This document shows, one piece after another, positions 7,675 to 38,441 of a DNA stretch of 54,214 bases. The DNA is from a virus. Its lineage: Duplodnaviria > Caudoviricetes. Position 1 is the first letter of the stretch; every line of letters starts with the position of its first letter. The DNA lies in IMG/VR virus record IMGVR_UViG_3300002026_000174, positions 1 through 54,214 of that record, one strand, 5' to 3'. Position numbers and translations under genes: made by a program. Below the pieces are notes generated by a model. That model was given only the letters and a program-made list of their open reading frames with translations, was not told the DNA's origin and made no database searches.

Positions 7675-10600
7675 ATGAAACTCAACATCTACGGAAATCT
7701 GCCAGTCTTTCTGATCCACGATCCAGAAGAACCGTTGGAAGCAGCGACGAAGCAGTACGTCGATAACAACATCATCGCTCACCGCGACGATGTGAACCTG
7801 CACATGACGGCGCAGCAAAACACGTTCCTGGACAGTCTGAGCGTCACCGCCATTGAAGTCAATTACCTCTCGGGCGTGACCTCTGGCGTGCAAGCGCAGT
7901 TCGACAGCAAGGTCAATCTGGCTGGCGGCACCATGACCGGTCTGTTGACACTGTCAGGGGACCCCACACTGAACCTGCAAGCCGCTACCAAGCAGTATGT
8001 CGATACCGCTGACATTGCCCTGGCAGGACGGGTCTCTACGCTGGAGTCTTTGGGTGCTTCTTTGAATGCAGATGCCACCACCAAGACCTACGTCGATGCA
8101 CAAGACGCTCTGAAGGTTGCCAAAGCCGGTGACATCATGAGTGGTTTCTTGACCTTGTCGGCTGATCCTACCGGTGCGATGCACGCCGCGACCAAGCAGT
8201 ATGTCGATACCGCTGACTCGGCTTTGAACACCCGTTTGACTACTGCAGAAGGCACGATCGCTACACTGAACACAGATGCGACGACCAAGGCGTATGTGGA
8301 TACACAGTTGGCATTGAAGGTGGCCAAAGCCGGTGACACGATGACAGGTCCTTTGGTTTTGCCAGCTGACCCTTTGACGGCTTTGCAAGCCTCGACCAAG
8401 CAGTACGTGGACAGTGGTGACTCGGCTTTGAACACCCGTTTGGTGAGTGCTGAAGGTACCATTGCTGGTTTGAATACCGACCCCGTGACCAAGGCCTACA
8501 CCGATAGCCAAGACGCGCTCAAAGTGGCTAAGGCGGGTGACACCATGACCGGTCTGCTGACGCTGTCCGCTGACCCAGTGGTGAACATGCACGCAGCGAC
8601 CAAACGTTACGTGGATACAGCTGATTCGACTTTGGCTGCACGTGTATCTGCCAACGAGACCAACCTGGCCACACTCAACACCGACCCCACCACCAAGACC
8701 TACGTCGATACCCAAGACGCGTTGAAAGTGGCTAAGGCCGGTGACACAATGACCGGCGCGTTGATTCTGAATGCGGATCCTAGCGTGGCGATGCAGGCTG
8801 CAACTAAGCAGTATGTTGATACCGCTGACTTGGCCCTGAGCAACCGTGTGGACGTCACTGAGGCTAACCTGGGCACATTGAACGCGGATGCCACCACCAA
8901 GGCTTACGTTGATGCGCAAGACGCGCTGAAGGTCTCTAAGGCCGGTGACACCATGTCTGGCCTGCTGACGCTGTCTGCTGATCCGACTGCTTCGATGCAC
9001 GCCAGCACAAAACAATACGTCGACTCTTCGATCACTACCCATACGTCTAACGACGCCATCCACATCACTGCAGGTCAAAACAGCTTCCTCGATGCGGTAA
9101 CTGCCACTGCCACCGAAGTGAACCAGCTCGTGGGCGTGACTTCTGCCGTGCAAGGTCAAATCGACAGCAAGTTGCCTCTGGCTGGTGGTACACTGACGGG
9201 CAACCTGGTGATGTCTTCTGGCTCGGTGGTGACTTTGAACACCATGCCAGCAGCTACCACGGACGCTGTCAACAAAGCCTACGTCGATGGCTTGATCCAA
9301 GGTCTGAAATGGAAAGACCCGATCCTGGACTCCAACTTGGTCAACACCGGTCTGAACGTGGCACCTGCTGTGCCCGTGAACGGTTACAGCTATGTGGTTG
9401 GTGATGCACCTGTGGGTGTCTGGGCTGCCTTTGCGGGTCGTCTGGTGACCTATGATGGCACACAGTGGGTCGATGTCTTGGGTCGTGCAGTGGCCATTGG
9501 TGACCGTGTGGGTGTGGCTTTTGATGCACCTACCGGTGACGTTGGCGCTTCTTTGGTGGCTTTTGATAACCAAGTCTTGACCGTAACCGGTCTGGCGCCT
9601 CTGAGCTTCACGCAAGAAGTCAATGAAGCCAATGACACCACACTGGTGACTGATTCTCAGTCTTATAGCTTTGGCACCAGCTACACCTTCACGGATGAAT
9701 CCGGTTGGGTGAAAGTGTCGAGCAACATCAACTTCGTGACTGGCACAGGTCTGTCCTTGGCTGGTAAACTCTTGGGTGTGAACCTGAGCTCAGGTATCGA
9801 AGAAGTCAACGACGCCGGTGTAAGCCGTCTGCGTGCTAAACTGTACCCCAGTTCTGGTTTGATCTTCACGGAAGATGGTACGGCGACTTCGACTAGCCTG
9901 CAAGCTGCTATCGGCGTGAAGGTGGATGCCTCTACCGTCGTGCTGAGCTTGGGTGCTGTGGCTGTGGCGCCAGCGGTGATGTCTGACATCGCTGCTAAGA
10001 TGAACCGCTCTGGTGACACGATGACCGGTCTGCTGACTCTGTCGGCTGATCCCACTCTGGCACTGCAAGCCGCTACCAAGCAATACGTGGACAACGCTGA
10101 CAGTTTGCTCGATGGCCGTGTCGATACGCTGGAAGCCACTTCTGCGGCTCTGAACACTGATCCGACGACCAAAACCTACGTCGATGCACAAGACGCTTTG
10201 AAGGTTGCCAAAGCTGGCGACACGATGAGTGGTTTCTTGAGCTTGTCGGCTGATCCTACTGGTGCGATGCACGCTGCCACTAAGCAGTACGTCGATACCG
10301 CCGATAACGCCATGAACACCCGCATGGTTGCTGCTGAAGCGTCGATTGATGTGCTCGAAGCAGACCCGACGACCAAGACCTACGTCGACGCGCAAGACGC
10401 CTTGAAGGTGGCTAAGGCTGGCGACACGATGACGGGTAGCCTGATTCTGAGCGCTGATCCGACTGCTGCCCTGCAAGCTGCTACCAAGCAGTATGTGGAC
10501 AATGCCGATATCGCTTTGGATGGTCGTGTTGATACGCTGGAAACTACTTCCGCAGCTCTGAACACGGATCCGACGACCAAGACCTATGTGGACGCACAAG

Positions 10601-13179
10601 ACGCTCTGAAAGTTGCCAAAGCGGGCGACACGATGACCGGTCTGCTGACGCTGTCTGCTGATCCTACTGGCAACTTGCACGCTGCCACCAAGCAATACGT
10701 CGATAGCGCTGACTCTGGTCTGAACACCCGTTTGACCACGGCTGAAGGCACTGTGGCTGTTCTCAATACCGACCCCGTGACCAAAGCCTACACTGACAGC
10801 CAAGACGCGCTCAAAGTGGCTAAGTCGGGTGACACCATGAGTGGTTTCTTGGTTTTGGCTGCTGATCCAGTCTCTGCCTTGCAAGCTGCTACGAAACAAT
10901 ACGTCGATACGGCTGATACGGGTCTGTCTACACGCGTGAGTACTCTGGAGACCTCTTCAGCGAACCTCAACAGCGATCCGACCACCAAGACGTATGTCGA
11001 CGCGCAAGACGCTCTGAAGGTGGCTAAAGCTGGCGACACGATGACCGGTCTGTTGGTTCTGTCGGCTGATCCTGTGCTCAACATGCACGCGTCTACCAAA
11101 CAGTACGTCGATCTGGCTGACTCTGGCCTGAACACACGTCTGACTGCCGCTGAAGGTACCGTGGCCACACTGTACGCTGATCCGACCACTAAGACGTATG
11201 TGGATGCACAAGATGCCACCAAGGTCGCTAAGGCCGGTGACACGATGACCGGTCCCCTGGTCCTGCCAGCTGATCCTATTTTGGCTCTGCAAGCTGCCAC
11301 CAAGCAATACGTCGACAGCGGTGATGCCGCACTCGATGCGCGTTTGGATACCGCTGAAGCCACACTCACTGGTCTGGTCTCTGACCCGACGACCAAAGCC
11401 TACGTCGATGCACAAGACGCTCTGAAGGTCGCCAAAGCTGGCGACACGATGACGGGTCATCTGGTACTGTCTGCTGACCCGTCTGTGGCCATGCATGCAG
11501 CGACCAAGCAATACACCGATACCACCGTAGCGACCCATGCCGCTAACGATAGCCTGCACCTGACCGCAGGTCAGAATACCTTCTTGGACGCTGTGACTGT
11601 CACTTCGGTGGAAGTCAACCGTTTGGCTGGCATCACTGGTGATGTGCAAACCCAACTCGACAGCAAGGTCGCTCTGGCTGGAAGCACCATGACGGGTAGC
11701 CTGATTCTGTCAGCTGATCCGACCGTTGCACTGCAAGCGACCACCAAGCAATACGTCGACGCTGCTGACTCTGGTCTGAACACGCGCCTGATCGCTGCTG
11801 AGAACACTGTGGCTACTTTGAACAGTGATCCGACCACCAAGACTTACGTCGACAATAACCTGAACAACAAGGTCGCCAAAGCCGGTGACTCCATGACAGG
11901 CTACTTGACTTTGGTAGGTGCTCCGGTACAACCGCTGCACGCCGTGACCAAAACTTATGTGGATAACTTGGTGCAAGGTTTGAACTCCAAACCCGCCGTG
12001 CGTTACGCCACCGATGCCAACTTGAATTCGGTGTACACCAATGGTACGCTGGGTGTGAACTCTACGCTGGTCTCAGTGGCTAACGCTGCGCTGGTCGTGG
12101 GTGGTTCTACCGCTGTCGTGGGTGACCGTGTGCTGGTGAAGGCTCAAACCAACGCCAAAGAAAACGGCTGCTACGTCGTCCAACAAGTCGGTGACACCAA
12201 TACACCGTTCATCCTCAAACGCATCGAGACCATCGATGAGTCCTCAGAGGTGCCGGGTTCTTACTTCTACGTCTATGACGGTGCTTTGAAGGGCACAGGC
12301 TGGTTGGCCACGGTCACCAACCCGGATACCTTCACCATCGGCACAGATGAGATCTTCGTGAACCAGTTCTCTGGCGCAGGCACTTACCAAGGTGGTGCTG
12401 GCTTGCAGTTGACAGGTACGGTGTTTGATATCCTCACTGCTTCTTCTAGCCGCATCGTGGTGGCTCAGGACAGCATTGACTTGGCAACGACTGCCGTGAT
12501 CCCTGGTGCTTACACCAAGCTCACCGTGGACGCTTATGGTCGTGCTACACAGGGCTCTAACCCCACCACGCTCGAAGGCTATGGCATCACTGATGCACAA
12601 GCTCTGAATGCGAACCTGGGTGCTATTTCTGCTGTGGCTGGCAACGGCATCTATATCAAGGTCGATGGCTCTAACGCCACCACCAAATCGATTGCGGTCT
12701 CTGGCACGGGCTTGTCCATTGCCAACGCCAACGGTATTGCCGCAGGAGACATCACCATCTCCTCCAACGCCACCAATCTCAATACACCTAGCACCGTCGT
12801 GGCGCGTGACTCCTCGGGTAACTTCACTGCTAACGCCGTGACAGCTGCTCTGGTGGGTAATGCATCGACTGCGACTGCTTTGGAGACAGCTCGCGATATC
12901 TCGATCACCGGCGATGTGGTAGCAAGCGCTGTGTCCTTCAACGGCACCGCTCCTGTGGCACTGTCTACCGCACTGACCGAGACTGGCGTGGTCCCGGGTG
13001 CTTACACCAAGGTCACTGTGGATGCCAAGGGTCGTTTGACTCTGGGTGAGAACCCCACCACCTTGGCAGGCTACGGTATCGTTGATGCCTTGACCATGAC
13101 ACAAGTGAACGACAAGTTCGCTGAACTCGATGCCAAGATCGATGAACTGTACAACTATATCCAATCTCGTTTTGCTTAA
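7675..13179 (+). CDS. Giant repetitive tail fibre protein (1834 aa)
   Basis: Two blocks of 68-aa repeats (KVAKAGDTMTGxLxLSADP..AATKQYVD..DPTTKTYVDAQDAL), a central DUF2793-like segment, a GDRVLVKxQTxxxENGxY motif and two PGxYTKxTVDxxGRxTxGxNPTTLxGYGI fibre motifs. Confidence 0.85.
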   Translation: MKLNIYGNLPVFLIHDPEEPLEAATKQYVDNNIIAHRDDVNLHMTAQQNTFLDSLSVTAIEVNYLSGVTSGVQAQFDSKVNLAGGTMTGLLTLSGDPTLNLQAATKQYVDTADIALAGRVSTLESLGASLNADATTKTYVDAQDALKVAKAGDIMSGFLTLSADPTGAMHAATKQYVDTADSALNTRLTTAEGTIATLNTDATTKAYVDTQLALKVAKAGDTMTGPLVLPADPLTALQASTKQYVDSGDSALNTRLVSAEGTIAGLNTDPVTKAYTDSQDALKVAKAGDTMTGLLTLSADPVVNMHAATKRYVDTADSTLAARVSANETNLATLNTDPTTKTYVDTQDALKVAKAGDTMTGALILNADPSVAMQAATKQYVDTADLALSNRVDVTEANLGTLNADATTKAYVDAQDALKVSKAGDTMSGLLTLSADPTASMHASTKQYVDSSITTHTSNDAIHITAGQNSFLDAVTATATEVNQLVGVTSAVQGQIDSKLPLAGGTLTGNLVMSSGSVVTLNTMPAATTDAVNKAYVDGLIQGLKWKDPILDSNLVNTGLNVAPAVPVNGYSYVVGDAPVGVWAAFAGRLVTYDGTQWVDVLGRAVAIGDRVGVAFDAPTGDVGASLVAFDNQVLTVTGLAPLSFTQEVNEANDTTLVTDSQSYSFGTSYTFTDESGWVKVSSNINFVTGTGLSLAGKLLGVNLSSGIEEVNDAGVSRLRAKLYPSSGLIFTEDGTATSTSLQAAIGVKVDASTVVLSLGAVAVAPAVMSDIAAKMNRSGDTMTGLLTLSADPTLALQAATKQYVDNADSLLDGRVDTLEATSAALNTDPTTKTYVDAQDALKVAKAGDTMSGFLSLSADPTGAMHAATKQYVDTADNAMNTRMVAAEASIDVLEADPTTKTYVDAQDALKVAKAGDTMTGSLILSADPTAALQAATKQYVDNADIALDGRVDTLETTSAALNTDPTTKTYVDAQDALKVAKAGDTMTGLLTLSADPTGNLHAATKQYVDSADSGLNTRLTTAEGTVAVLNTDPVTKAYTDSQDALKVAKSGDTMSGFLVLAADPVSALQAATKQYVDTADTGLSTRVSTLETSSANLNSDPTTKTYVDAQDALKVAKAGDTMTGLLVLSADPVLNMHASTKQYVDLADSGLNTRLTAAEGTVATLYADPTTKTYVDAQDATKVAKAGDTMTGPLVLPADPILALQAATKQYVDSGDAALDARLDTAEATLTGLVSDPTTKAYVDAQDALKVAKAGDTMTGHLVLSADPSVAMHAATKQYTDTTVATHAANDSLHLTAGQNTFLDAVTVTSVEVNRLAGITGDVQTQLDSKVALAGSTMTGSLILSADPTVALQATTKQYVDAADSGLNTRLIAAENTVATLNSDPTTKTYVDNNLNNKVAKAGDSMTGYLTLVGAPVQPLHAVTKTYVDNLVQGLNSKPAVRYATDANLNSVYTNGTLGVNSTLVSVANAALVVGGSTAVVGDRVLVKAQTNAKENGCYVVQQVGDTNTPFILKRIETIDESSEVPGSYFYVYDGALKGTGWLATVTNPDTFTIGTDEIFVNQFSGAGTYQGGAGLQLTGTVFDILTASSSRIVVAQDSIDLATTAVIPGAYTKLTVDAYGRATQGSNPTTLEGYGITDAQALNANLGAISAVAGNGIYIKVDGSNATTKSIAVSGTGLSIANANGIAAGDITISSNATNLNTPSTVVARDSSGNFTANAVTAALVGNASTATALETARDISITGDVVASAVSFNGTAPVALSTALTETGVVPGAYTKVTVDAKGRLTLGENPTTLAGYGIVDALTMTQVNDKFAELDAKIDELYNYIQSRFA
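7910..9020 (+). repeat. First block of ~204-bp coding tandem repeats in the fibre gene
   Basis: GG(T/C)GACAC(C/G)ATG and ACCAAGCAGTA(C/T)GT recur about every 204 bp; edges approximate. Confidence 0.8.
10010..11960 (+). repeat. Second block of ~204-bp coding tandem repeats in the fibre gene
   Basis: Same unit; antisense shadow ORFs begin at 10176, 10380, 10584 and 10788, showing the 204-bp period; edges approximate. Confidence 0.85.
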
Positions 13180-14190: not shown

Positions 14191-15306
14191 TTAAGAGTAG
14201 TACTCAGCTGCCACTTGCTTGGATACTTCCTTTAAAAGCGTATTGGTGGTGCCTGCAATATAGGGGGATAACACGATACGGTTGCTGATGCTCTTAAAGC
14301 CAAACATCGCTAAGACCTCACGGTTATCTTCGGTGTGGATATCGTAGTTCATGATCTCACCGACCACGGACTTGAGCTGGGCTGCAAACACGAATTTATC
14401 GCCTACACCAGCATTAACATCGACGGTGATGTAGACCTTGATCTCCATCGTATCGAGTTGTAGGTTGTTACCTTCGACCCGGTACTCGGAATCTACGGCG
14501 TTGGAGTCGACTTCTAGGTCGGTATGTTTGCTGCTGTGGCGCACCTCGGCGTCTAACTCTTTCGCGAGTTTCTTGAGCGTGGGTGACATGTCGGTGGTCG
14601 ATCCATTGTAGTAGATCTCATACTTGTCAATCACGCCTTGGAGCTTAGCTTTAGGAGAGATGTTGGCCATGTTAGCGAGCAGCTTAATCGTGTCCTCAGA
14701 GAGGTTAGTCAGGTCTGAGGTCTCATCGAGGATCGTGAAGAGTACCGTATCAGGCTCTACCGTAGTGCCAACTGGCAGCAGCTTGATCACGTTCTTCGTG
14801 AACTCCACCACAAAGGACTTGACCTTGGTGATCTTCGTAGAGAGTTTAGCAGAGAGCTTATGAGACAGCGCTGAGCTGTCCTCGTAGACCTCGTTATTGA
14901 GTGTCAGTGCCGTGGTGGCTAGAGCATTGATCTTCATGATGATGCGCTTGGGGTCTAACCAATCGCGCTCAAAGAAACCTGTGTTATAGGTGAGGATATC
15001 GTCTTTTCTGAAGGTATCACCAACAGCGAGATCAGAGATGACTTCGTGAGGGTAGCAAGTACCTTCAGCTAAGCCGTGTTGACGACCGGTGGGGATCGTG
15101 ACTTTAGTACCGTTCTTGTATTCCACGGTAAAGACTTTCTCGGTCTTGTGGATCACACGACCACTGTCTTTGGCCACGTAACAAAAGAGTTTACCGGCCC
15201 TGTAAGGCACGATATATTCATACCCTGTACGCAGGAGAGGCTGGTGGTAGTCTCTGGCTGCGATGGTGTGTGCGTTCTGGATGCCAACAAAATTGACCCG
15301 TTTTGG
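14191..15306 (-). CDS. Virion-type RNA polymerase beta subunit, 3' exon
   Basis: Frame extends upstream of the listed ORF to PKRVNFVGIQNAH...PLLRTGYE; contains YEDS and GDKF beta motifs; joins exon 1 ending HDD. Confidence 0.9.
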   Translation of the reverse strand, partial: PKRVNFVGIQNAHTIAARDYHQPLLRTGYEYIVPYRAGKLFCYVAKDSGRVIHKTEKVFTVEYKNGTKVTIPTGRQHGLAEGTCYPHEVISDLAVGDTFRKDDILTYNTGFFERDWLDPKRIIMKINALATTALTLNNEVYEDSSALSHKLSAKLSTKITKVKSFVVEFTKNVIKLLPVGTTVEPDTVLFTILDETSDLTNLSEDTIKLLANMANISPKAKLQGVIDKYEIYYNGSTTDMSPTLKKLAKELDAEVRHSSKHTDLEVDSNAVDSEYRVEGNNLQLDTMEIKVYITVDVNAGVGDKFVFAAQLKSVVGEIMNYDIHTEDNREVLAMFGFKSISNRIVLSPYIAGTTNTLLKEVSKQVAAEYYS

Positions 15307-15621
15307 CGATGTCTTCAGTCAAGTTCGTTAAACATGACCCGCTACTCATGGTAGCTGCTCTGGGTTTTCCCCAGATGTCGAGACTATATCTTCACCTTCC
15401 GATTAATGGTAAGGTGTTTCCTGTTTCCCCACCCACTCGGGCAGGTACTGGCTGATAAGGCCATAGTCGTTGAACGTTACGCATATCTCGCTTCACAGCG
15501 TTATGTAGCGTCTTCGCTGCGGATTACCCATCTATCTTTACCTCTTTTACCATACCCAGGTGATTAGTCTGGCCATAGATGTGTTTCCATCATCTACTTG
15601 GTGTGTAAAGCTCTCAGATGT

Positions 15622-16287
15622 CTAACTTAAACGAGATAAGACGTCGGATTTCTTTAAATTTCTTTTATAAGGTATTCGCTCAAGCGTTATACCCTTTTCT
15701 TTAAAGAATTCTTCCTTGATCTTATCATACTCTTGCACTGTGCCATTATTCCACTGTTGCCAGATATGTTTAGGGTTTTTATGTTGAGATCCGTCAGCTT
15801 CAATTACCAGATTCTTTTCTGGTATGTAAAAGTCAACTCTCAGCGGATAACCCGTTGTCCCTACCAGTCCATCAAATTTCTTTTCAGTTTCTATGTGAGA
15901 AAATTCCTGTTGAAGAAACTCTCCCACCTTTTCCTGAAATTTTGATTTTGGTTTGACAAATCCCAAATCACGGTTTAGTTCACTTACCTTCAAACCGTGT
16001 TTGGTAAACATCTTAGAACTATGTCCAATGCCAGTGCAAATCTCCTCCATTGCACAGTACTCATTCTTTTCCCGAATAAAGTCAGTGACTTTATTCTTCA
16101 AGATTTCTCCACCAACATCTTTAGCTATACAGCCTTGATTTTTTTTATCTGGAGATTTTGAAGCACAGGATCTAGAACAGTGGGATGTTTTCAAAGTAAC
16201 AGCATACCCGTCTTTAGGTAAATACCTCGTGCTGAATACTTTCCCACAGGTTGTGCAATTTTTTTCGTGCTCGTTTAAGTTAGACAT
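15622..16287 (-). CDS. Intron-encoded endonuclease 2 (zinc finger plus Vsr/DUF559-like PD-(D/E)xK domain)
   Basis: CTTC...HCSRSC finger and LRVDFYIPEKNLVIEADGSQH nuclease motif; AGGAG RBS before ATG 16287; AT-rich; lies between the two P4 strands of the intron. Confidence 0.8.
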   Translation of the reverse strand: MSNLNEHEKNCTTCGKVFSTRYLPKDGYAVTLKTSHCSRSCASKSPDKKNQGCIAKDVGGEILKNKVTDFIREKNEYCAMEEICTGIGHSSKMFTKHGLKVSELNRDLGFVKPKSKFQEKVGEFLQQEFSHIETEKKFDGLVGTTGYPLRVDFYIPEKNLVIEADGSQHKNPKHIWQQWNNGTVQEYDKIKEEFFKEKGITLERIPYKRNLKKSDVLSRLS

Positions 16288-16403
16288 CTGCCTGCTCCTA
16301 TGAATGTTTTTCATAGAATTTGCAGGTAGGATGTCCCCGCCAATTAAGGAAAATTTCATTGACTGTTTCTAGTCAATGAGACCGTCTGTCCATTTAAATT
16401 GCA

Positions 16404-17393
16404 TTAACTTGAATAGTAGCTATATCTGTGCCCGTCTGAAAATGTCGTTCTGTCGTTAGACTTAAGACGATAGTTCAGAGCCGTTGGTGAAATACCAAGA
16501 GCCTTTGCACATTCGTTTGCTGATTTAAAAACCCTTACTTCGCCAGTTTGACTGTTTGTAACGTTCACAGACCTTTCCCCTGTGTGTTTTTGCAGTTCCA
16601 AATATGGGTCAACAACCATACGCCATTCAGCGGGGTCATCGGTCCACTTAAGCTGGACAAATCCTGGCAGTACTGCTTGATCTGTTTTTTGTAACCAACC
16701 AGTTACGGTCGACGCAGAGACTTGTAAGTGATCGGCCAACTGACCCATCGTCTTGAACTCAAGTATTTCGTTCGTTAACACGTTCCTGGCTAAAACAGAC
16801 TTAGCTTTGCCGCCTTGTAAGGATCTAATCTTTACCTTTTCTACAGAGCACCATGGTTCGTCACTATGCGAGGGTCTGTATTGTTTACCCTCTGGAAAAA
16901 CCTTGTACTCACCTGCCTTTACCCGCCAGTTTATAAAGTCCTTAGAAACTCCAAACTCTCTGGCACATTCAACAATGCTCGGGTACTTTACAACAATTCC
17001 AGTGTTCACGTCTCTAACAGAAATAGGCATACATTTAGTTGTCAGTCCTAAACTACCCGCATGATGGGCATTGCCTTGATACGTTGTCCATTCCAGATTG
17101 TCTAATCGATCATCGCCTTTTATAGCGTTGAGATGGTTTACCACCATTTTACCAACATTAGGACCTGGGTGTTTGAACACATAACCTAGAAGTCGATGGC
17201 GACCCCATGTCAAAGTGACACCCTCGTCGTCGGTTAACCTAATGTTGACATATCCGTCTGGATTTCTGCTTCCTGTTAAAAACTCTCCACGCTTTTTGTT
17301 AAACACGTCTCCTTTTACCGTGATAGCGTAAGTACTGTAACCTGGTATGTCGTACAGACAAGGAAATTGCGTTTCTACGTTGCTACTATTCAT
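16404..17393 (-). CDS. Intron-encoded HNH homing endonuclease with NUMOD-type DNA-binding repeats
   Basis: HRL...VVNHLNAIKGDDRLDNLEWTTYQGNAHH HNH core; three helix-turn-helix repeats (YPSIVECAREFGVS, FKTMGQLADHLQVS, FKSANECAKALGIS); AGGAG RBS. Confidence 0.9.
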   Translation of the reverse strand: MNSSNVETQFPCLYDIPGYSTYAITVKGDVFNKKRGEFLTGSRNPDGYVNIRLTDDEGVTLTWGRHRLLGYVFKHPGPNVGKMVVNHLNAIKGDDRLDNLEWTTYQGNAHHAGSLGLTTKCMPISVRDVNTGIVVKYPSIVECAREFGVSKDFINWRVKAGEYKVFPEGKQYRPSHSDEPWCSVEKVKIRSLQGGKAKSVLARNVLTNEILEFKTMGQLADHLQVSASTVTGWLQKTDQAVLPGFVQLKWTDDPAEWRMVVDPYLELQKHTGERSVNVTNSQTGEVRVFKSANECAKALGISPTALNYRLKSNDRTTFSDGHRYSYYSS

Positions 17394-17458
17394 CTCAACT
17401 CCTACATGTATTCAAACAATAGGAGGGTTATCTTTAATGCTATTCAAATGACAGGTTA

Positions 17459-18429
17459 ATCATCGTGATCTACGCCAGGTACAAGTAAAGCTGAAGTGGA
17501 GAGTAACTTCGCTGGGTTAGTCTCGTAGTCTGTATTCGCTGTATCGATCATACCGCGCACGTTCTTAAAGCGAGCGTATGGAGTCAGAAAGGTGTTGATA
17601 CCCACGTCTGAGCTGTCTACCGTCGACTCTGAGGTTACCCCCATATCACTGGGTGTAAATTCCCGCAGTCGCCCTGAGATGGCTTCCTTGTTCAAGCCGT
17701 CTTGTCCGACCAAGGTCACGGACTCCATCTCTTTCAGATCGTTGATGGGGTTGATATCCTCGGTGAGCTTCTTGGAATTGTCCATGACGATGTTGTTCCA
17801 CACCGCGTAGGGTGAGAGCTCGATCTTATTGCTGCGGTTGGTCTTGAACTTATAGTTACGAATGCTCTCTGAGAGAGCTCGGTACATCAGGCCAGGGATG
17901 CGCTCATAGCCCCTGATACGGGTATAGTTAGAGTCATTGACATCAGGGTGATGCATGTCTGTGAGGAGCTGGTTAGCCCTTAGGAGCAGAGCGATGTATT
18001 CGGTTGGCTCTTGCATCTCTTGTAAAACATCCATCGTGATGGGGTCCAGGAAGATGTCTCGGAGCATGTCAAGCTCTTTGAGGTAGAGCATGTTGAAATC
18101 ACGCTCTTCTAAGAGGAGCAAGTAAATGTTCTTCTTGTTGAACTCCGAGAGGGTGTACTCTTTGGTGAAGTCCTTGAAGTAGAGGAAACCAGCCAAAAGC
18201 AGGGAAGCTTCCTTGTTGGCTTTAGAGAAGATGAGCTTGTAGTCGCTGAACTTGAGTTGGTATTCGTCCTTGGCCAGCTTGTACTGCTTGTTCGATGGGA
18301 TGATCGTGGGATTAGCCCGGGTGATCTTGATGAGGTTGGACAACCCTAAGTAATACCCAAAGGCCACACCTAAGGGCATATCTTTACCAAGCACCTTGAT
18401 GTTGGTGAACGAGGTGGGTAGTTCACTTT
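17459..18429 (-). CDS. RNA polymerase beta subunit, middle segment (end of exon 1, downstream of frame break)
   Basis: Frame open from SELPTSFTNIKVLGKD; RIRGYER, INPINDLKE, SESTVDSSDVG motifs; ends GVDHDD at the 5' splice site. Confidence 0.85.
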
Positions 18430-20523
18430 ACCGTAGAGGTAGAAGGTATCGCTCTTGTCAACCACGATCGGTGTGTTGCTCTTATCAAAGCCACAGAACA
18501 CAAAGCCTTCTGGATGCTGCGTGATCTCTGCGTTGAGTTCAGGGGTAATCAGCTTGAGTGTTTCAACCTGACTGAAGACAAAGGTATATTCACCGGTTAA
18601 GGTTTGGACCTTCACACGACTAAAGACCATCGACATCGCAGCATAGATGTTAGGTAGATGTTCTTTGTTTTGAAACGTGTTGCCCAGTGAGAGGGAAAGG
18701 ATCTTAACCACATGTTCGGTATCTTCGATGTAGCTTTTGCGGATATAGTCCGTGAGGTAGGTATAGTAGTCGTAGGCTTTCTTCTCACTACGGGTGATGA
18801 AGAGCTTACTGTAGTTGCTGGTGAGCGCGACGCGGTTAGGTGCGATCTTGACAATAGGAAGGCTTGTTTTGACCTTTCTCAGTTTTACCTTAACCCCAGA
18901 GGCCAAGAATTCACCTTCGTCATTGACCTTGGGTAACTTGAAGTAGATCGTCGACTCTTTACCCAAGAGAGGTTTCAGGACCAAACGGTGAATCTCGTAA
19001 TTACCTAACTTAGACTTCTCTTCCTCGATCTCGTAGCTTTTGATCACCACACCAGCTTTCTCGATATTAGAGACACAAGCGAGCACATCTTTCTTAAGGA
19101 CGGAGTCAATGTACTTGTTGTCCATCACCTTCAAGATGTCTTGCTGCATGTCGGCGCGTACGAGGTCGTTGTGGACGTCGATCGTGCGATCGTGTAGGGT
19201 GACCTCCCGGTCGCTCTGGGAGACGATCCTGGCCTCATTAAAGAGCTTGGTGGGGTCGTAGGGAGACTTGAGGGTCTTACGAGACTCGATGAGCTTTTTA
19301 ACGGCTCTGAGCTCAGAGGAATTGACGGCCTTCACATCTAAGAGAGAGCCTAAGTAATCACTGAACTGATCATCCAGTGGTTTTTCTTGGATCAAGTCAA
19401 TGATCTCGGTATCGGTGGCGGTGAAGCTGATCTCTTCTTGCTCGGGGGTGGGTTCTGACACCACAGGAACAGGAGCATCGGCATCGAGTTCGTCCTTGGC
19501 AAAGAGCGTGTCCATGTCGGTGTCGCTGTATTCCTTCTCCAGCTCATCGATGTCGATGTCTTGCTCAGAGGAGGTATCTTCAGCTTCTACAAAGTCATGG
19601 TCAGGCGTGACACCTTTAGCGACAGGGGTATCGACTTGTGCAGCTTCTAAGAGCTTATCGACACGGCTTTGGATGATCAAGAGGAAGATCACATACATCT
19701 TCTGCACTTTATCGACAGGCTTCTTGAGCTTACTCTGCAGCCCAGAGGCGTCAGACAGAGAGGCCAGGATCGACAGAGGTAAGTAGACCACGTGGTCCTT
19801 GTACTCGATGGCCAGCACGACGTTGGCGCTGTCCTCGTCGGTCAAGTCTTTGTACACGGACTGATTGCGTGTCTTAGGATCGAGCCACAAGAACAGATGG
19901 ATCACGTTCAAAAGCGCATCTTCTTGGACCAAGCGCATCATCTTCTGCGGCGGGAACTCGGAGATCCGCTTGATCACGTTGTAGCCGTAGAGCATCGTGG
20001 GGATATAAAACGGCACGAAGTTAACCACGCTAGGATGGGTCGTGACGATCTCTTTGACGCTTTTGAGATACGTGGCGTGCAGGTTGGTGTACGCGTAGTA
20101 TTTGCTCAACGGTGAGCTCGTGTAACGGTAAGCGTCTTTCACGGCGTTGTAGTTGATCACACTCACCGTGGTGTCATCTAAGACCGGGGTCTGGGTGATC
20201 TCGCTGGGGCGAAAGACTGAGAGGTTAGCGCGGTACCATTGACGAATCGTGTTGGCAATGAGCTTGTCTTTGAGGATGGGGTTGCCCTCTTTGACAGCCA
20301 GATCGGTGACGGTCTGTACACGGATCTTCTTGGAGCTTGGCGTGTCTTTGAAGTAGTAGAGATCCTTGGTGGGAAAGCGCACGTGTTCGTTAGGGTCGAT
20401 GTAGTGCACCAGCGCCTGCTTAGGCAGGATCACGTCTTCCTTGCGGTTGATCTTGGGGTTCAGGAGGTTGATGTAGTTCCTCACCGCATAGCGCAGAAGG
20501 AAACTGGGTTTGGCTAAAAGCAT
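18370..20523 (-). CDS. RNA polymerase beta subunit, N-terminal segment (phiKZ gp178-like); out of frame with the next segment
   Basis: GVVIKSYEIE..., LPIVKIAPNRVALTSNYSKLFITRS motifs of phiKZ-type virion RNAP beta; GGAG RBS; last ~17 aa appear out of frame. Confidence 0.8.
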   Translation of the reverse strand: MLLAKPSFLLRYAVRNYINLLNPKINRKEDVILPKQALVHYIDPNEHVRFPTKDLYYFKDTPSSKKIRVQTVTDLAVKEGNPILKDKLIANTIRQWYRANLSVFRPSEITQTPVLDDTTVSVINYNAVKDAYRYTSSPLSKYYAYTNLHATYLKSVKEIVTTHPSVVNFVPFYIPTMLYGYNVIKRISEFPPQKMMRLVQEDALLNVIHLFLWLDPKTRNQSVYKDLTDEDSANVVLAIEYKDHVVYLPLSILASLSDASGLQSKLKKPVDKVQKMYVIFLLIIQSRVDKLLEAAQVDTPVAKGVTPDHDFVEAEDTSSEQDIDIDELEKEYSDTDMDTLFAKDELDADAPVPVVSEPTPEQEEISFTATDTEIIDLIQEKPLDDQFSDYLGSLLDVKAVNSSELRAVKKLIESRKTLKSPYDPTKLFNEARIVSQSDREVTLHDRTIDVHNDLVRADMQQDILKVMDNKYIDSVLKKDVLACVSNIEKAGVVIKSYEIEEEKSKLGNYEIHRLVLKPLLGKESTIYFKLPKVNDEGEFLASGVKVKLRKVKTSLPIVKIAPNRVALTSNYSKLFITRSEKKAYDYYTYLTDYIRKSYIEDTEHVVKILSLSLGNTFQNKEHLPNIYAAMSMVFSRVKVQTLTGEYTFVFSQVETLKLITPELNAEITQHPEGFVFCGFDKSNTPIVVDKSDTFYLYGKVNYPPRSPTSRCLVKICP

Positions 20524-31693: not shown

Positions 31694-32632
31694 TTACTCT
31701 TTGAACGCACCGACGACGCCCTCTAAAGCCTTCAAGAACTCAGCACCTTTGTCTTTCTTGTTCAGGCGAGCGACGATCTGACCCAAACTACTCTTGCTGT
31801 AGCTTTTGCTCTCCAAAGCGGCTTGGACCATGCTCACAAACACTGGAGGGTATTCTAAGCCCACCATGATGTTTTCCTTGGCGTTCAGACCAAACCAGCT
31901 GTTGGCAATCACGGTGCTGAGCACGGCCATGTTCAGGCCTTTCAAGCGCACGTTATCGGTGACGGCGTAGCATGCCTCACAGAAGCTCTCGGCGTTACTG
32001 AGTTTGTGGCCGACCTTCTTGAAGATGTCACCCATCAACTCTTCGCTCAGTAAGAACTCGCTCTTAAAGCGAATGTAGAGCTTATCGGCCTCATCTTGGT
32101 CCAACTTCTCTACAAAGAGACTGTGGTAATACAGCAGTGCGAGCACCTTCAACTTGAACGTATCGCCTAGATCCAGGCCAAATCGCTTGGCTAAATTATC
32201 TGATAACCAGGCGCTAAATACGACATAGCCGAATTTGAGGTCTCTGAGTTCACCCATCCGACCCACAAACCAGAGATTGCTCAAGATATACTTGTTGACG
32301 GTGAAGGTGTACTCGCTCTCGTTTCTCACCTCGATGTCCGTCTTGTCCTTATTGGGCTTGGTGCAGAACCGTAAATCCAATACACTGATCTTGTTGCTCG
32401 CATCCACGAGTGCCTGAGTGATGTGATCAATGTCTTGCTCAAGCGTGCTGAGCCCACACAGCACCACTGGGTCCAAATACACCTCAGCGTTACTAAAGCT
32501 CTTTAACTTCAACGCGAGCTTTTCCTTGATAAAGTAGTAGTCAATGATGACGTACTTCCTGACGTTCTCCAATACCTTATCCCGGTTGAGTATGCTCAAA
32601 TAGGACGTGTCATACGCCGTCTTGTTAATCAT
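31694..32632 (-). CDS. Virion structural protein divergent from the sheath gene
   Basis: 312-aa ORF (TAYDT N-terminus, SWFG, LEYPP); arrangement resembles phiKZ-like tail clusters. Confidence 0.7.
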   Translation of the reverse strand: MINKTAYDTSYLSILNRDKVLENVRKYVIIDYYFIKEKLALKLKSFSNAEVYLDPVVLCGLSTLEQDIDHITQALVDASNKISVLDLRFCTKPNKDKTDIEVRNESEYTFTVNKYILSNLWFVGRMGELRDLKFGYVVFSAWLSDNLAKRFGLDLGDTFKLKVLALLYYHSLFVEKLDQDEADKLYIRFKSEFLLSEELMGDIFKKVGHKLSNAESFCEACYAVTDNVRLKGLNMAVLSTVIANSWFGLNAKENIMVGLEYPPVFVSMVQAALESKSYSKSSLGQIVARLNKKDKGAEFLKALEGVVGAFKE

Positions 32633-34968: not shown

Positions 34969-35028
34969 ATGAGTCGATTGTCAGATGCTTTAGTCTCTGG
35001 GGCATACGCTCGGGATCGTTTATTTTAA
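34969..35028 (+). pseudogene. Orphaned copy of the tail-tube gene 5' end (19 aa)
   Basis: TTAGGAGT RBS then MSRLSDALVSGAYARDRLF*, matching the tube N-terminus MSRLSDALLTGAY. Confidence 0.85.
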
Positions 35029-36336
35029 ACCTGTTGAAAACATTTTATTTAACTTGTCCATTAGAAAAGATTCTATTTTGTTGTTATCAAGAACAACATA
35101 TGGAACAGTGATGAGTTTACCATTAAACAATTCAACTAATCTTTTTTTACAATAATCAGATACTTTTTGTTCTTTGAACCCATCCAAATCTCTGTGAAAG
35201 AACTCCACATATCTGTAGTGTTGCATGCCATGAAACTCAATGAAGACGTTGTGGTCAGGTAAGTAAAAGTCATATCTGAATTTGTTATTTGGTAGTTTGT
35301 GCTCCCGAACATAGTTAACGCCATGTTTGTCCAAAATTTCAGCTATCTTTAATTCCCCTTTAGAATCACTGCATTTTCTACACCCGCATTTGTCGTTAAC
35401 GTGCACAGACGGAGTTTGTTCAAACGGGCCGTGTATAGGGCAGATTATTGTTACTTTATCAAGGTAACCAAAATACTCAACCTTGCTGTAGTCGTATCTG
35501 TCGCCATGCACCTCTCTAGCTTTAGCGATGAACTCCTCTGTGGTCGTTCTTCTGTTTTCAAAATTACAATCAGGACAAATACTGGTAATGTGCACGGCCG
35601 GGGTTTGTTGAAACTCGCCGTGTATAGGGCAGATTATTGTTACTTTAGTGGTATTATTTATGTATACCGTTTTACTATAATCATACTTGTCGCCATGCTT
35701 TTCGCGGGCTTTAGCTATGAACTGATCTAAGCCTAACGACCTATCGTTTACCCCACATAGGTAACATTTTTTACCTTCTAAATGCGTGGTTGGTTTTTGT
35801 TGAAACGGGCCGTGCGCCGGGCAGATTATAGATACAGGCACTCTTGATGTGACGTAGTTAACTTGGCTGTAGTCGTATCTGTCGCCATGTACCTTTCTAG
35901 CTTTAGCGATGAACTCCTCTGCGTTTGATCTTATTTTTACAGAGCGACAAGCAGGGCAGTTAAACCCTCTGAGGAAATGAAAGGGGAGATATTGAAATTC
36001 CCCGTGCTCTTTACAAATAACGGTTATTTTAGAATCTCGCGAGGTGTAGTTAACTTGGCTGTAGTCGTATCTGTCGCCATGCACCTTTCTAGCTTTAGCG
36101 ATGAACTCCTCTGTGGTCAGTCTAACACACATAGGTGAGCATAGTGGACAATCACTGTCTATATGTATAGATGGTTTCTGCTGGAACTCCCCGTGAATCG
36201 GACACAATATCGTGACAGGAGTTTGCATGTCTTTGTAACACATTTTGCTATAGTCGTACTTGTCCCCGTGTTTAGCCTTGGCTTTAAGAATGAATTTCTT
36301 AGCATTTAATGCTATTGTTACTTTCATATTTTTCAT
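35020..36336 (-). CDS. Free-standing putative homing endonuclease (five zinc-ribbon repeats plus Vsr/DUF559-like nuclease)
   Basis: Five FIAKARxxHGDxYDYS...IICPxHGxFxQxPxxH...CxxC repeats; C-terminal FRYDFYLPDHNVFIEFHGMQHY; AT-rich; antisense to the structural operon. Confidence 0.85.
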   Translation of the reverse strand: MKNMKVTIALNAKKFILKAKAKHGDKYDYSKMCYKDMQTPVTILCPIHGEFQQKPSIHIDSDCPLCSPMCVRLTTEEFIAKARKVHGDRYDYSQVNYTSRDSKITVICKEHGEFQYLPFHFLRGFNCPACRSVKIRSNAEEFIAKARKVHGDRYDYSQVNYVTSRVPVSIICPAHGPFQQKPTTHLEGKKCYLCGVNDRSLGLDQFIAKAREKHGDKYDYSKTVYINNTTKVTIICPIHGEFQQTPAVHITSICPDCNFENRRTTTEEFIAKAREVHGDRYDYSKVEYFGYLDKVTIICPIHGPFEQTPSVHVNDKCGCRKCSDSKGELKIAEILDKHGVNYVREHKLPNNKFRYDFYLPDHNVFIEFHGMQHYRYVEFFHRDLDGFKEQKVSDYCKKRLVELFNGKLITVPYVVLDNNKIESFLMDKLNKMFSTGLK

Positions 36337-37356: not shown

Positions 37357-38112
37357 ATGTCGATTGTCAAGTTCACAGGCACCGTGCTGCCTAACATCAA
37401 TAAAAAGGGTGTTCTCACCCCCGATAGCAATGGCTACTACACGTTCATCGTGGGCGGTCTGAACTGCTTTAACTCCGCTGGTGAGTACTATACCGCCAAG
37501 GGGGCGTCTCAGCTCTTTGAGGGCTCCAGTCACCTGATGCGTCGTATCTCTAACGGTGCGCTCTTTGGTGAGTTGGGGCATCCTAAGAAGGACCCTGCGA
37601 TGAGCATGGAAGACTTCTATAAGCGTGTGTTTACGCTGGATGAGCAAAACATCTGCTGCCATTTCAGTGAGATCTGGTTGGACTTTGCCTATGGTAAGAA
37701 CACCCCCTCTGCAAACAATCCCGATCTGGTGGCGATCATGGCCAAGGTCAAACCCTCTGGTGTGCATGCGAAAGCCTTGGAAGACTCCATCACCAACCCA
37801 CAGGAGAACGTGGCTTTCTCCATTCGCGGGATCACGGATAACAAGTACAGGAATGGTCGGGTGGAGCGTACACTCACGCAGATCATCACCTGGGACCGTG
37901 TGATAGAGCCTGGCATCAAGATGGCCAACAAGTGGGCTAGTCCTGTGCTGGAAGAGCTCTCGGACGTCTCGATCAATACCGAGAAGCTGCTCCAAGTAGC
38001 CGCCGAGAGCCAGTGCTCTTTGCTGGCTACTGAGAACAGTCGCGCTATTTATAGCGAGGTGATTGAGAAATACACGGTCTCTCCTAAGCGCTCTTCTTTG
38101 CTGGAGTGGTAG
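37357..38112 (+). CDS. Prohead (head maturation) serine protease, phiKZ gp175-like
   Basis: GELGHP (His), AFSIRG (Ser), ITWD..EPG motifs of T4 gp21-like prohead proteases. Confidence 0.85.
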   Translation: MSIVKFTGTVLPNINKKGVLTPDSNGYYTFIVGGLNCFNSAGEYYTAKGASQLFEGSSHLMRRISNGALFGELGHPKKDPAMSMEDFYKRVFTLDEQNICCHFSEIWLDFAYGKNTPSANNPDLVAIMAKVKPSGVHAKALEDSITNPQENVAFSIRGITDNKYRNGRVERTLTQIITWDRVIEPGIKMANKWASPVLEELSDVSINTEKLLQVAAESQCSLLATENSRAIYSEVIEKYTVSPKRSSLLEW

Positions 38113-38441
38113 AGGTGGCGCCGGATTACAAGTATGCGGCCAAGGTAGACCGCGTGGTCGACGGTGACACGGTAGATGCCGTGATGGATTTGGGGTTTCA
38201 TGTGGCGATTAAAATCCGCTGCAGGTTAGCCCGGGTCAACGCTGTGGAATTGTATGCCCCAGGAGGGAAAGACGCTAAACTGACCGTACAAATGCTTTTA
38301 CCGGTGGGTAAAGATGTCTTCATCCACAGCACGAGTTTAGATAAATACGGGCGCAGTATCGCTGAGATTTACGTGGATAACGAGAATCTGACCGACATTC
38401 TGCGCGGAGACTATCCGACGCTTTTTAAGCCTTATGTCTAG
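38106..38441 (+). CDS. Thermonuclease (SNase-like)
   Basis: RVVDGDT, RLARVNAVE, DKYGRSIA motifs; start codon uncertain. Confidence 0.8.
   Translation: MVEVAPDYKYAAKVDRVVDGDTVDAVMDLGFHVAIKIRCRLARVNAVELYAPGGKDAKLTVQMLLPVGKDVFIHSTSLDKYGRSIAEIYVDNENLTDILRGDYPTLFKPYV

Follow-up and report, generated by a model that had tools for sequence, protein, structure and literature searches.

A perfect inverted repeat joining the start and stop of an intron-borne endonuclease gene in a phiKZ-like virus, with comparative evidence for a conserved RNA helix

A group I intron with two endonuclease genes

The virus record IMGVR_UViG_3300002026_000174 (Duplodnaviria; Caudoviricetes), analysed at its full length of 54,214 nucleotides and hereafter called the window, carries a gene for the beta subunit of a phiKZ-type RNA polymerase that is interrupted by a group I intron containing two open reading frames (ORFs), ORF1 and ORF2, both for endonucleases. 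The start and the stop of ORF2 lie in the two arms of a perfect 21-bp inverted repeat, and this repeat is the subject of the present report; we read it as a conserved helix, a 'start-stop clamp', which most likely allows folding of the ribozyme around the gene and at the same time keeps the start codon hidden. The intron, its exons and both ORFs are on the minus strand, and the rest of the contig holds phiKZ-like structural and replication genes along with several further endonuclease genes. The features of the interrupted gene are:

17459..18394, minus strand: exon 1, 3' part, of the phiKZ-type RNA polymerase beta gene (phrog_3148, E 6e-105, profile positions 740-1050)
17445..17464, minus strand: P1, exon GAUGAU with intron GUCAUU and a U.G pair at the splice site (from a fold of 17470-17380 and a reading of the sequence)
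15307..17458, minus strand: group I intron, 2152 nt; 5' splice site after U17459, final base G15307
16404..17393, minus strand: ORF1, an HNH and NUMOD homing endonuclease of 329 residues, relative of PhiPA3 gp210, between P1 and P2
15622..16287, minus strand: ORF2, an endonuclease of 221 residues with a predicted N-terminal Cys4 ribbon, helical middle domain and C-terminal Vsr-like nuclease domain
16270-16290, minus strand: 5' clamp arm, ORF2 nucleotides -3 to +18 (CAG AUG UCU AAC UUA AAC GAG)
15615-15635, minus strand: 3' clamp arm, the final 14 coding nucleotides of ORF2 including the TAG stop at 15624-15622, plus 7 nt
14191..15306, minus strand: exon 2 of the RNA polymerase beta gene, beginning CCA AAA CGG (PKR...), phrog_3148 profile positions 1049-1420

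The jumbo-phage RNA polymerase beta family phrog_3148 is matched by three ORFs: 18370-20523 at profile positions 5-708, 17456-18394 at 740-1050 and 14191-15210 at 1083-1420. Exon 1 terminates in ...VDHDD at 17459, with an in-frame TAA directly after, and its last 114 residues reach profile position 1050; the frame of exon 2 is open from 15318, and its proline codon at 15306 (residue P5 of that frame) corresponds to profile position 1051, so that the intervening sequence is 17458-15307. Its removal restores a continuous polymerase frame in which positions 1050 and 1051 abut, and the junction is identical in the related locus L049. Both hallmarks of group I splice sites are present, a U paired with G within P1 at the 5' site and a G as the last intron base. 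The Rfam group I model RF00028, which cannot span the ORF2 insert in P5, matches 15358-15700 with 40.8 bits (E 6.3e-8; the gathering score is 50), and the homologous intron of phage PhiPA3 scores 67.8 bits with the Rfam group I model. ORF1 matches Pfam NUMOD1, HNH_3 and NUMOD4, phrog_59 (E 5e-40) and, by blastn, PhiPA3 gene 210.

The repeat and its position in ORF2

A repeat search recovered 15615-15635 and 16270-16290 as arms of 21 nt that are 100% complementary and separated by 634 nt, exactly as a preliminary description of the sequence had put it. Its further claim, that the repeat joins the start and stop of the second intron ORF, is borne out by the coordinates: the 5' arm (16290-16270 on the minus strand) begins 3 nt 5' of the ATG at 16287 and reaches through codon 6, and the 3' arm (15635-15615) starts in codon -4, of which it takes the final 2 nt, and continues through codons -3 to -1 and the TAG stop for another 7 nt. 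An AGGAG sits 7 nt upstream of the ATG.

Among arms up to about 1 kb apart this is the longest perfect inverted repeat of the window, the runners-up being 16-nt hairpins, and the longest arm in 100 dinucleotide shuffles averaged 12.2 nt and never exceeded 16. Matches to the 21-mer were expected by chance at 0.01, with two or more in none of 100 shuffles, and a third copy is absent from the window and the whole 54,214-base record with up to 3 mismatches allowed. Each arm is covered without differences by short contigs from four runs in two studies (the 5' arm by X2 and X3, the 3' arm by X4), which may include the sample from which the window was assembled; among these short contigs no joints across ORF2 or the intron were seen. 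A look through the sequencing runs listed no RNA run with this sequence.

ORF2, at -33.9 kcal/mol, has the strongest start-stop duplex of the 34 window ORFs of at least 100 codons that were compared, the next reaching -23.6 kcal/mol. The second and third ranks belong to 31694-32632 (minus strand, -23.6 kcal/mol) and 38106-38441 (plus strand, -22.5 kcal/mol), the latter a small endonuclease gene flanked by those for the prohead protease and the terminase. The window also contains a free-standing ORF2 paralog of 438 residues (35020-36336, minus strand; phrog_559/9084), located between tail sheath and virion protein genes and on the opposite strand; its start-stop duplex, at -4.0 kcal/mol, is the weakest of the 34 and amounts to no start-stop pairing.

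Conservation of the pairing among relatives

A search of a large protein collection returned 55 homologs of ORF2 at E <=0.001 among 189 candidates, mostly 210-229 residues long, and 53 of them were aligned, two truncated ones (P0050, P0051) being left out. Their termini are conserved, with M-T/A/S-N/K-L-N-E at the N terminus and L-S-R/H-L-x-stop at the C terminus. If codons 1-6 have to be the reverse complement of the 3' end, in the register of the window, residues 3-4 fix the last residue. The termini of 35 of the 53 proteins are compatible with perfect 18-nt complementarity in this register; shuffling the C-termini among the proteins left 13.6 compatible on average and 22 at most, and none of 1000 shuffles reached 35, although both the protein counts and the shuffle controls ignore shared ancestry. 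Asn-Leu at residues 3-4 is followed by a last residue S, N, D or G in 25 of 26 cases, Lys-Leu by A or V in 11 of 11, Arg-Leu by V in the single case and Asn-Ile by C in one of two; the last residues observed are exactly those that the complement rule allows.

Neither ORF2 nor exon 1, used as a single-protein query against IMG/VR, retrieved any relative, and a profile scan was needed to find the corresponding DNA. Profile scans gave 46 loci in IMG/VR, 28 in metagenome contigs and 8 in genome contigs, these last 8 being only distant relatives of the C-terminal domain, none with a full ORF. We kept ten distinct full-length loci of the same architecture which, with the window, make up the eleven loci to which all counts over loci below refer. 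Identical duplicates were dropped (L005 and L053 of L004, L009-L011 of L008, L014-L016 of L013), as were L012 (start unclear, z -0.1), L052 (5' end cut), the longer proteins L018-L022 and L054, and matches to the C-terminal domain only.

For these loci, duplex energies were calculated between a start window (-6 to +30) and a stop window (-30 to +14). In nine of the eleven loci (the exceptions being L008 and L017) the duplex of the cognate 5' and 3' arms is the best in its row, with a mean of -21.0 kcal/mol for cognate versus -9.7 kcal/mol for non-cognate combinations; the observed sum was reached in none of 20,000 permutations. The AUG lies inside the clamp helix, again in nine of eleven. At L049, which shares 60% protein identity and the same host gene, 20 contiguous pairs are found with both sides changed, UCU/AGA of the window becoming GCU/AGC and AAC-UUA/UAAGUU becoming AAG-CUA/UAGCUU, and at L050 (44% identity) 28 pairs are formed by a different sequence, G.U pairs included. 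Clamp length and register vary among loci, and in the more distant ones the pairing shrinks to 11-14 contiguous pairs and contains bulges. Of nine loci, seven have a sense-strand duplex of greater stability than its antisense counterpart and two have duplexes of about equal stability, which favours an RNA helix of the mRNA strand over a DNA-level repeat. Comparison of these sequences indicates that selection maintains the repeat as an RNA helix of the sense strand.

An ORF2 homolog occurs in P5 of the same intron backbone in polymerase beta genes of three PHROG families (the window, L049 and L051; L050; L004), and the backbone with its ORF2 homolog is also found in a gene for the tubulin PhuZ (L003), a tape-measure gene (L006) and a ribonucleotide reductase gene (L017). 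Of these, PhuZ is a marker of nucleus-forming jumbo phages. At 6 of the 11 loci (the window, L049, L051, L050, L004 and L003) an HNH (phrog_59) ORF and the Vsr-like ORF2 homolog are present together in or beside the same intron; such paired endonuclease genes might, to give one example only, encode two nickases acting jointly.

An equivalent conserved clamp for ORF1 was considered and rejected, cognate pairs being no better than non-cognate ones in five loci and the pairing not being conserved in 4 relatives. In the window itself (16404-17393, minus strand) the first codons of ORF1 (AUGAAUAGUAGC) pair with its last codons (GCUACUAUUCA) over 11 bp. A second long-range helix appears in the minimum free energy (MFE) fold between the sequence after P1 (17454-17430) and that after the ORF1 stop (16420-16385), at -31.7 kcal/mol; shuffles reach -34.6.

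Placement of ORF2 within the ribozyme

The intron structure was taken from the partition function of the exact intron and from an MFE fold of the intron plus 4 exon bases, and the core 3' of the insert was assigned from the Rfam alignment, the MFE fold and an alignment with PhiPA3. The fold runs in the order P2, P3, J3/4, P4, P5, a hairpin holding the Shine-Dalgarno (SD) sequence of ORF2, the 21-bp helix directly adjoining it, AGAG and a further helix. Its elements, as predicted, are:

16356..16379, minus strand: P2 hairpin, 9 bp with a 6-nt loop (MFE fold; pair probabilities 0.62-1.0)
16329..16352, minus strand: 5' strands of P3 (16352-16347), J3/4, P4 (16342-16336) and P5 (16332-16329) (MFE fold and alignment A2)
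16291..16326, minus strand: SD hairpin, closed by CCUGC/GCAGG, its 3' half holding the ORF2 SD AGGAG (16299-16295) (pair probabilities 0.98-0.99)
15536..15610, minus strand: next P5-extension helix, CUUUAC (15610-15605) with GUAAAG (15541-15536), enclosing two small hairpins
15358..15529, minus strand: core 3' of the insert, with P5' (15529-15526), P4' (15523-15518), P6, P7 (15468-15464/15386-15382), P7.1/7.2, P3' (15422-15417), P8 and P9

P3 is formed by UUUCCU at 16352-16347 with AGGAAA at 15422-15417 (strands checked), and P4 by 16342-16336 with 15523-15518. P5, on homology and covariation, consists of AUCC (16332-16329) with GGGU (15529-15526), and of GCCC/GGGU in relatives. The preliminary description had pointed to GACATC on both sides of the insertion as two candidate 5' strands of P5 against AGATG. 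The two strings do exist (16338-16326 and 15624-15613), but their reading as alternative P5 strands is not supported, and the AGATG string proposed as their partner is not conserved in relatives.

Base pairing was counted in alignment A2, which comprises the window and the ten other distinct ORF2-homolog loci, over 51 pairs and 441 cells. Of these cells 86.8% are paired, versus 66.3% in shuffles (none of 500 as high) and 36-42% with the partner slid by 1-3 columns, the latter a control with some bias in favour of the structure, which was derived from the window itself. Changes on both sides are seen in 33 of the 51 pairs, and in P2 all 8 pairs counted changed on both sides. P4 is paired in 98.5% of cells and P5 in 86.4%, with three of the four P5 pairs compensatory. 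Similar figures are obtained for the helices at the insert: four of five pairs are compensatory in the closing helix of the SD hairpin; the clamp's 10 AUG-proximal pairs are paired in 86.4% of cells and 7 of them are compensatory, the distal pairs being blurred by alignment gaps; and the helix 15610-15605/15541-15536 is paired in 100% of cells, with compensatory change in all six pairs.

The PhiPA3 intron lies at the same site and lacks ORF2, and so provides the comparison with an ORF-less homolog that had been suggested at the outset. In the alignment its P5 5' strand is followed by 'UU' and then by the same AGAGC, so that 16326-15615 of the window (712 nt: SD hairpin, clamp and ORF2) is an insert at the P5-extension junction. 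Homology and covariation together put the ORF2 module in the P5 extension. This location, at which the ORF2-less intron has 2 nt, fits the early proposal that the helix could allow the ribozyme to fold with the ORF looped out. The companion proposal, that it hides the start codon, agrees with the predicted ensemble, in which the mean clamp pair probability is 0.95 and the unpaired probability 0.000 for the AUG and 0.011 for the SD; in most relatives, too, the nascent fold pairs most of the SD zone.

In the nascent window RNA, GGACAUC (16330-16336, in the 5' strands of P4 and P5) can pair with GAUGUCU at the AUG (16282-16288), in a fold of -30.5 kcal/mol. As a conserved anti-AUG strand this upstream GGACAUC was rejected, the pairing being absent in 8 relatives; it may be a folding intermediate specific to the window phage.

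The ORF2 protein

ORF2 matches the endonuclease families phrog_559 and phrog_9084 and scores 17.8 bits with DUF559, for which the cut-off is 20.6; no NCBIfam family matches it, and no Pfam match to a NUMOD-type DNA-binding region was obtained. A PDB sequence search gave 0 matches with ORF2 alone and, with the A1 alignment profile, only the DUF559-like 3hrl (E 0.23). An AlphaFold (AF2) model built on the 53-sequence alignment has a mean predicted local distance difference test score of 87. Residues 115-221 of this model resemble the catalytic domain of I-Bth0305I (3r3p_B: Z 9.5, root-mean-square deviation 2.9, 89 residues aligned) and Vsr (1cw0_A, Z 8.9; 1vsr, Z 8.4), and Foldseek relates it to 3r3p_A with probability 1.00 at a weak E of 0.029. 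The C-terminal domain is predicted from these matches to have the Vsr-like nuclease fold. D152, E163, D165, H169 and H174 are invariant in the 53 homologs and are candidate residues for the published E-D-x-H-D motif. The helical domain of the model resembles helix-turn-helix proteins (Z about 5).

Interpretation and alternatives

We hypothesize, with a probability of roughly 60%, that the two arms of the repeat pair in the RNA as a long-range helix of the P5 extension, which insulates the ribozyme and sequesters the start codon of ORF2. Under this hypothesis the second endonuclease gene would be accommodated in the P4-P6 domain as a self-closing module, consisting of the small SD-holding hairpin and then the 21-bp helix made from the first six codons of ORF2 and its last codons and stop. 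Closure of the clamp would join the two ends of the 712-nt module (16326-15615), allowing P5, P4 and the rest of the core to form the pairs seen in the relative without the ORF. Comparison establishes the helix and where it lies, and from them we infer the structural role. The clamp would bury the AUG and the neighbouring hairpin the SD, both of which are predicted to be paired in the intron RNA within conserved helices; ORF2 would then be translatable only before the 3' arm is made or with the helix open. A ribosome reaching the stop codon would have to unzip the helix and, by analogy with I-TevI of the T4 td intron, translation and splicing may be mutually exclusive. On the evidence of the alignments the helix is real, non-random and conserved, and its proposed function is well motivated.

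It is important to note that several observations weigh against this interpretation. The ribozyme core of the window scores under the Rfam gathering score, and at gathering thresholds Rfam has no match anywhere in the window. Shared ancestry means fewer independent compensatory events than the raw counts suggest. At two of the 11 DNA loci, L008 and L017, no clamp is seen, and the perfect-complement rule fails for 18 of the 53 proteins, some of them using another register, as L050 does. For I-Bth0305I, the prototype of P5-inserted Vsr-like genes, the start-stop duplex of -11.9 is close to the shuffle mean (-11.2) and was matched in 195 of 500 shuffles, and an ORF can therefore sit in P5 without a clamp; we accordingly rejected the clamp as a general feature of P5-inserted Vsr-like endonuclease genes, and it is instead a property of the ORF2 lineage. 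Finally, in nucleus-forming phages the phage nucleus is described as uncoupling transcription from translation (PMC12908238, in the text available). If the phage of the window forms a nucleus there would be no co-transcriptional window, the idea of a 'kinetic window' for ORF2 translation would fail, and the role left to the clamp would be that of constant repression.

An explanation that we regard as unlikely, yet the most serious of the alternatives, is that the helix serves structural insulation only: it would close the ORF loop so that P4-P6 can fold, AUG burial being a by-product and the endonuclease being made at a very low level. It draws on the same comparative evidence, the helix lies exactly at the insertion point relative to PhiPA3, and variation in clamp length and register among loci is what one would expect if closure alone mattered. 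A closing helix could, however, lie outside the coding region, yet it includes the AUG in nine of eleven loci; the separate conserved hairpin over the SD points to selection on translation; and I-Bth0305I sits in P5 with no clamp at all.

It is improbable, in our judgement, that the helix serves RNA processing, in which a perfect duplex of about two turns would be cut by an RNase III-like enzyme, destroying or releasing the ORF2 message. The three closest loci have 20-28 contiguous pairs, in principle long enough for RNase III, but distant loci have only 11-14, bulged; a cut within the helix would remove the start codon, and nothing in the window points to such processing.

Even less probable is a DNA-level element, either a recombination or inversion site or, as the preliminary description had offered as an alternative, the terminal repeats of a small mobile unit carrying ORF2. 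A nuclease gene flanked by a perfect inverted repeat, in a contig rich in homing endonuclease genes, does invite that thought. The arms, however, lie within coding sequence; the record holds no other copy and no flanking direct repeat or target duplication; both arms change in step in homologs, with no terminal consensus, and their G.U pairs favour a sense RNA; the module occupies one and the same place in the intron in every case, between conserved flanks; and no contig joins across ORF2. The mobile-unit idea finds no support in these observations. Chance or an assembly artefact, for which the sole point is that the record is a metagenome assembly, can be dismissed on the shuffle controls, the intact ORF2, the presence of the same feature in independent assemblies of relatives and the coverage of both arms without differences by contigs of other runs.

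Returning to the start-stop clamp, it is tempting to speculate, more tentatively and with some doubt, that it is a heritable 'insulator' that travels with the ORF2 family in jumbo-phage introns and works as a two-state switch. With the clamp closed the ribozyme would be folded and the endonuclease silent; with it open, through a ribosome or because the 3' arm does not yet exist, the endonuclease would be made and P4-P6 unfolded. As both strands are coding, such an RNA switch would dictate the first and last residues of the protein, a rare case in which an RNA helix fixes the ends of the very protein under its control. In nucleus-forming phages endonuclease synthesis might then be confined to rare exported RNAs that escape folding.

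Only for a few T4 introns is it understood how large protein genes fit into the catalytic core of a ribozyme without ruining it and how their expression avoids interfering with splicing. The ORF2 family may represent a solution that can be read from sequence, in which the closing helix is built from the two ends of the gene itself and the terminal residues are coupled in dozens of relatives. It would suggest a testable design rule for cargo insertion into group I ribozymes and a natural jumbo-phage system in which to ask whether translation and splicing exclude each other. A role in phage-phage competition is known for an intron endonuclease at the same polymerase site.

Other features of the window and the related loci

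At 18370-18394 (minus strand) the polymerase frame shifts, frame 1 stopping after ...KICP and frame 0 running on as ...IKVLGKDMPLG; L049 is continuous over this region of the profile, and the shift could reflect a frameshift, a mistake in the assembly or a genuine split. A tail-fibre-like protein of 1834 residues, with many repeat units of about 45 residues containing 'ATKQYVD', is encoded at 7675-13179 on the plus strand. Among the related loci, further group I matches lie near the ORF2 intron in L006 (2581-2791), L003 (4958-5178), L050 (4031-4364) and L007 (4980-5173), as tandem introns in one gene region, and L013 has a LAGLIDADG ORF downstream.

Comparison with known systems

The closest known intron is that of PhiPA3 gp210, in the virion RNA polymerase beta gene, which shares with the window the host gene, the insertion point, a homologous HNH ORF and the ribozyme core. 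This putative group I intron is described as inserted immediately after two conserved aspartates of the polymerase subunit (Birkholz et al. 2024, PMC11620839, in the text available). The order gp211 (RNA polymerase beta), gp210 (endonuclease), gp209 is the same as in the window, with the match at gene 210 and downstream. The difference is that PhiPA3 has the HNH ORF only, and two nucleotides where the window has 712 nt of SD hairpin, clamp and ORF2.

I-Bth0305I is the prototype EDxHD homing endonuclease, its ORF interrupting P5 of the recA group I intron of Bacillus phage 0305phi8-36 (PMC3239194, in the text available). It resembles ORF2 in the predicted Vsr-like fold of the C-terminal nuclease domain and in its P5 location. 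It differs in showing no sequence-level match to ORF2 at E up to 1, in having NUMODs N-terminally where ORF2 has a Cys4 ribbon and a helical domain, and in the lack of start-stop pairing in its intron, which was located in the phage record.

The mechanism proposed here owes most to the td intron of T4 and its I-TevI. Hairpins that sequester the ribosome-binding site (RBS) are known for intron ORFs, and mutation of the I-TevI hairpin is reported to give a splicing defect; the end of the I-TevI ORF overlaps P6a/P7, and ribosome entry is reported to be harmful to splicing (PMC3073962; PMC3984707, in the text available). As in td, the window has an endonuclease ORF inside a phage group I intron with an RBS that is predicted to be sequestered by RNA structure, and the 3' end of the ORF appears to supply nucleotides to ribozyme helices (compare PMC3073962). 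The td arrangement is a local hairpin in the P6 loop, with the ORF end over P6a/P7; in the window, by contrast, the start pairs with the stop across 634 nt in a P5 extension, and both ends of the protein carry a covarying trace of this pairing. No start-stop pairing in intron ORFs was described in the titles and abstracts that we searched, a literature from which subscription journals are mostly absent and which is not proof of novelty. In any case, RBS sequestration in intron ORFs is a known theme, and what the ORF2 family seems to add to it is the long-range, start-to-stop form with coupled protein termini.

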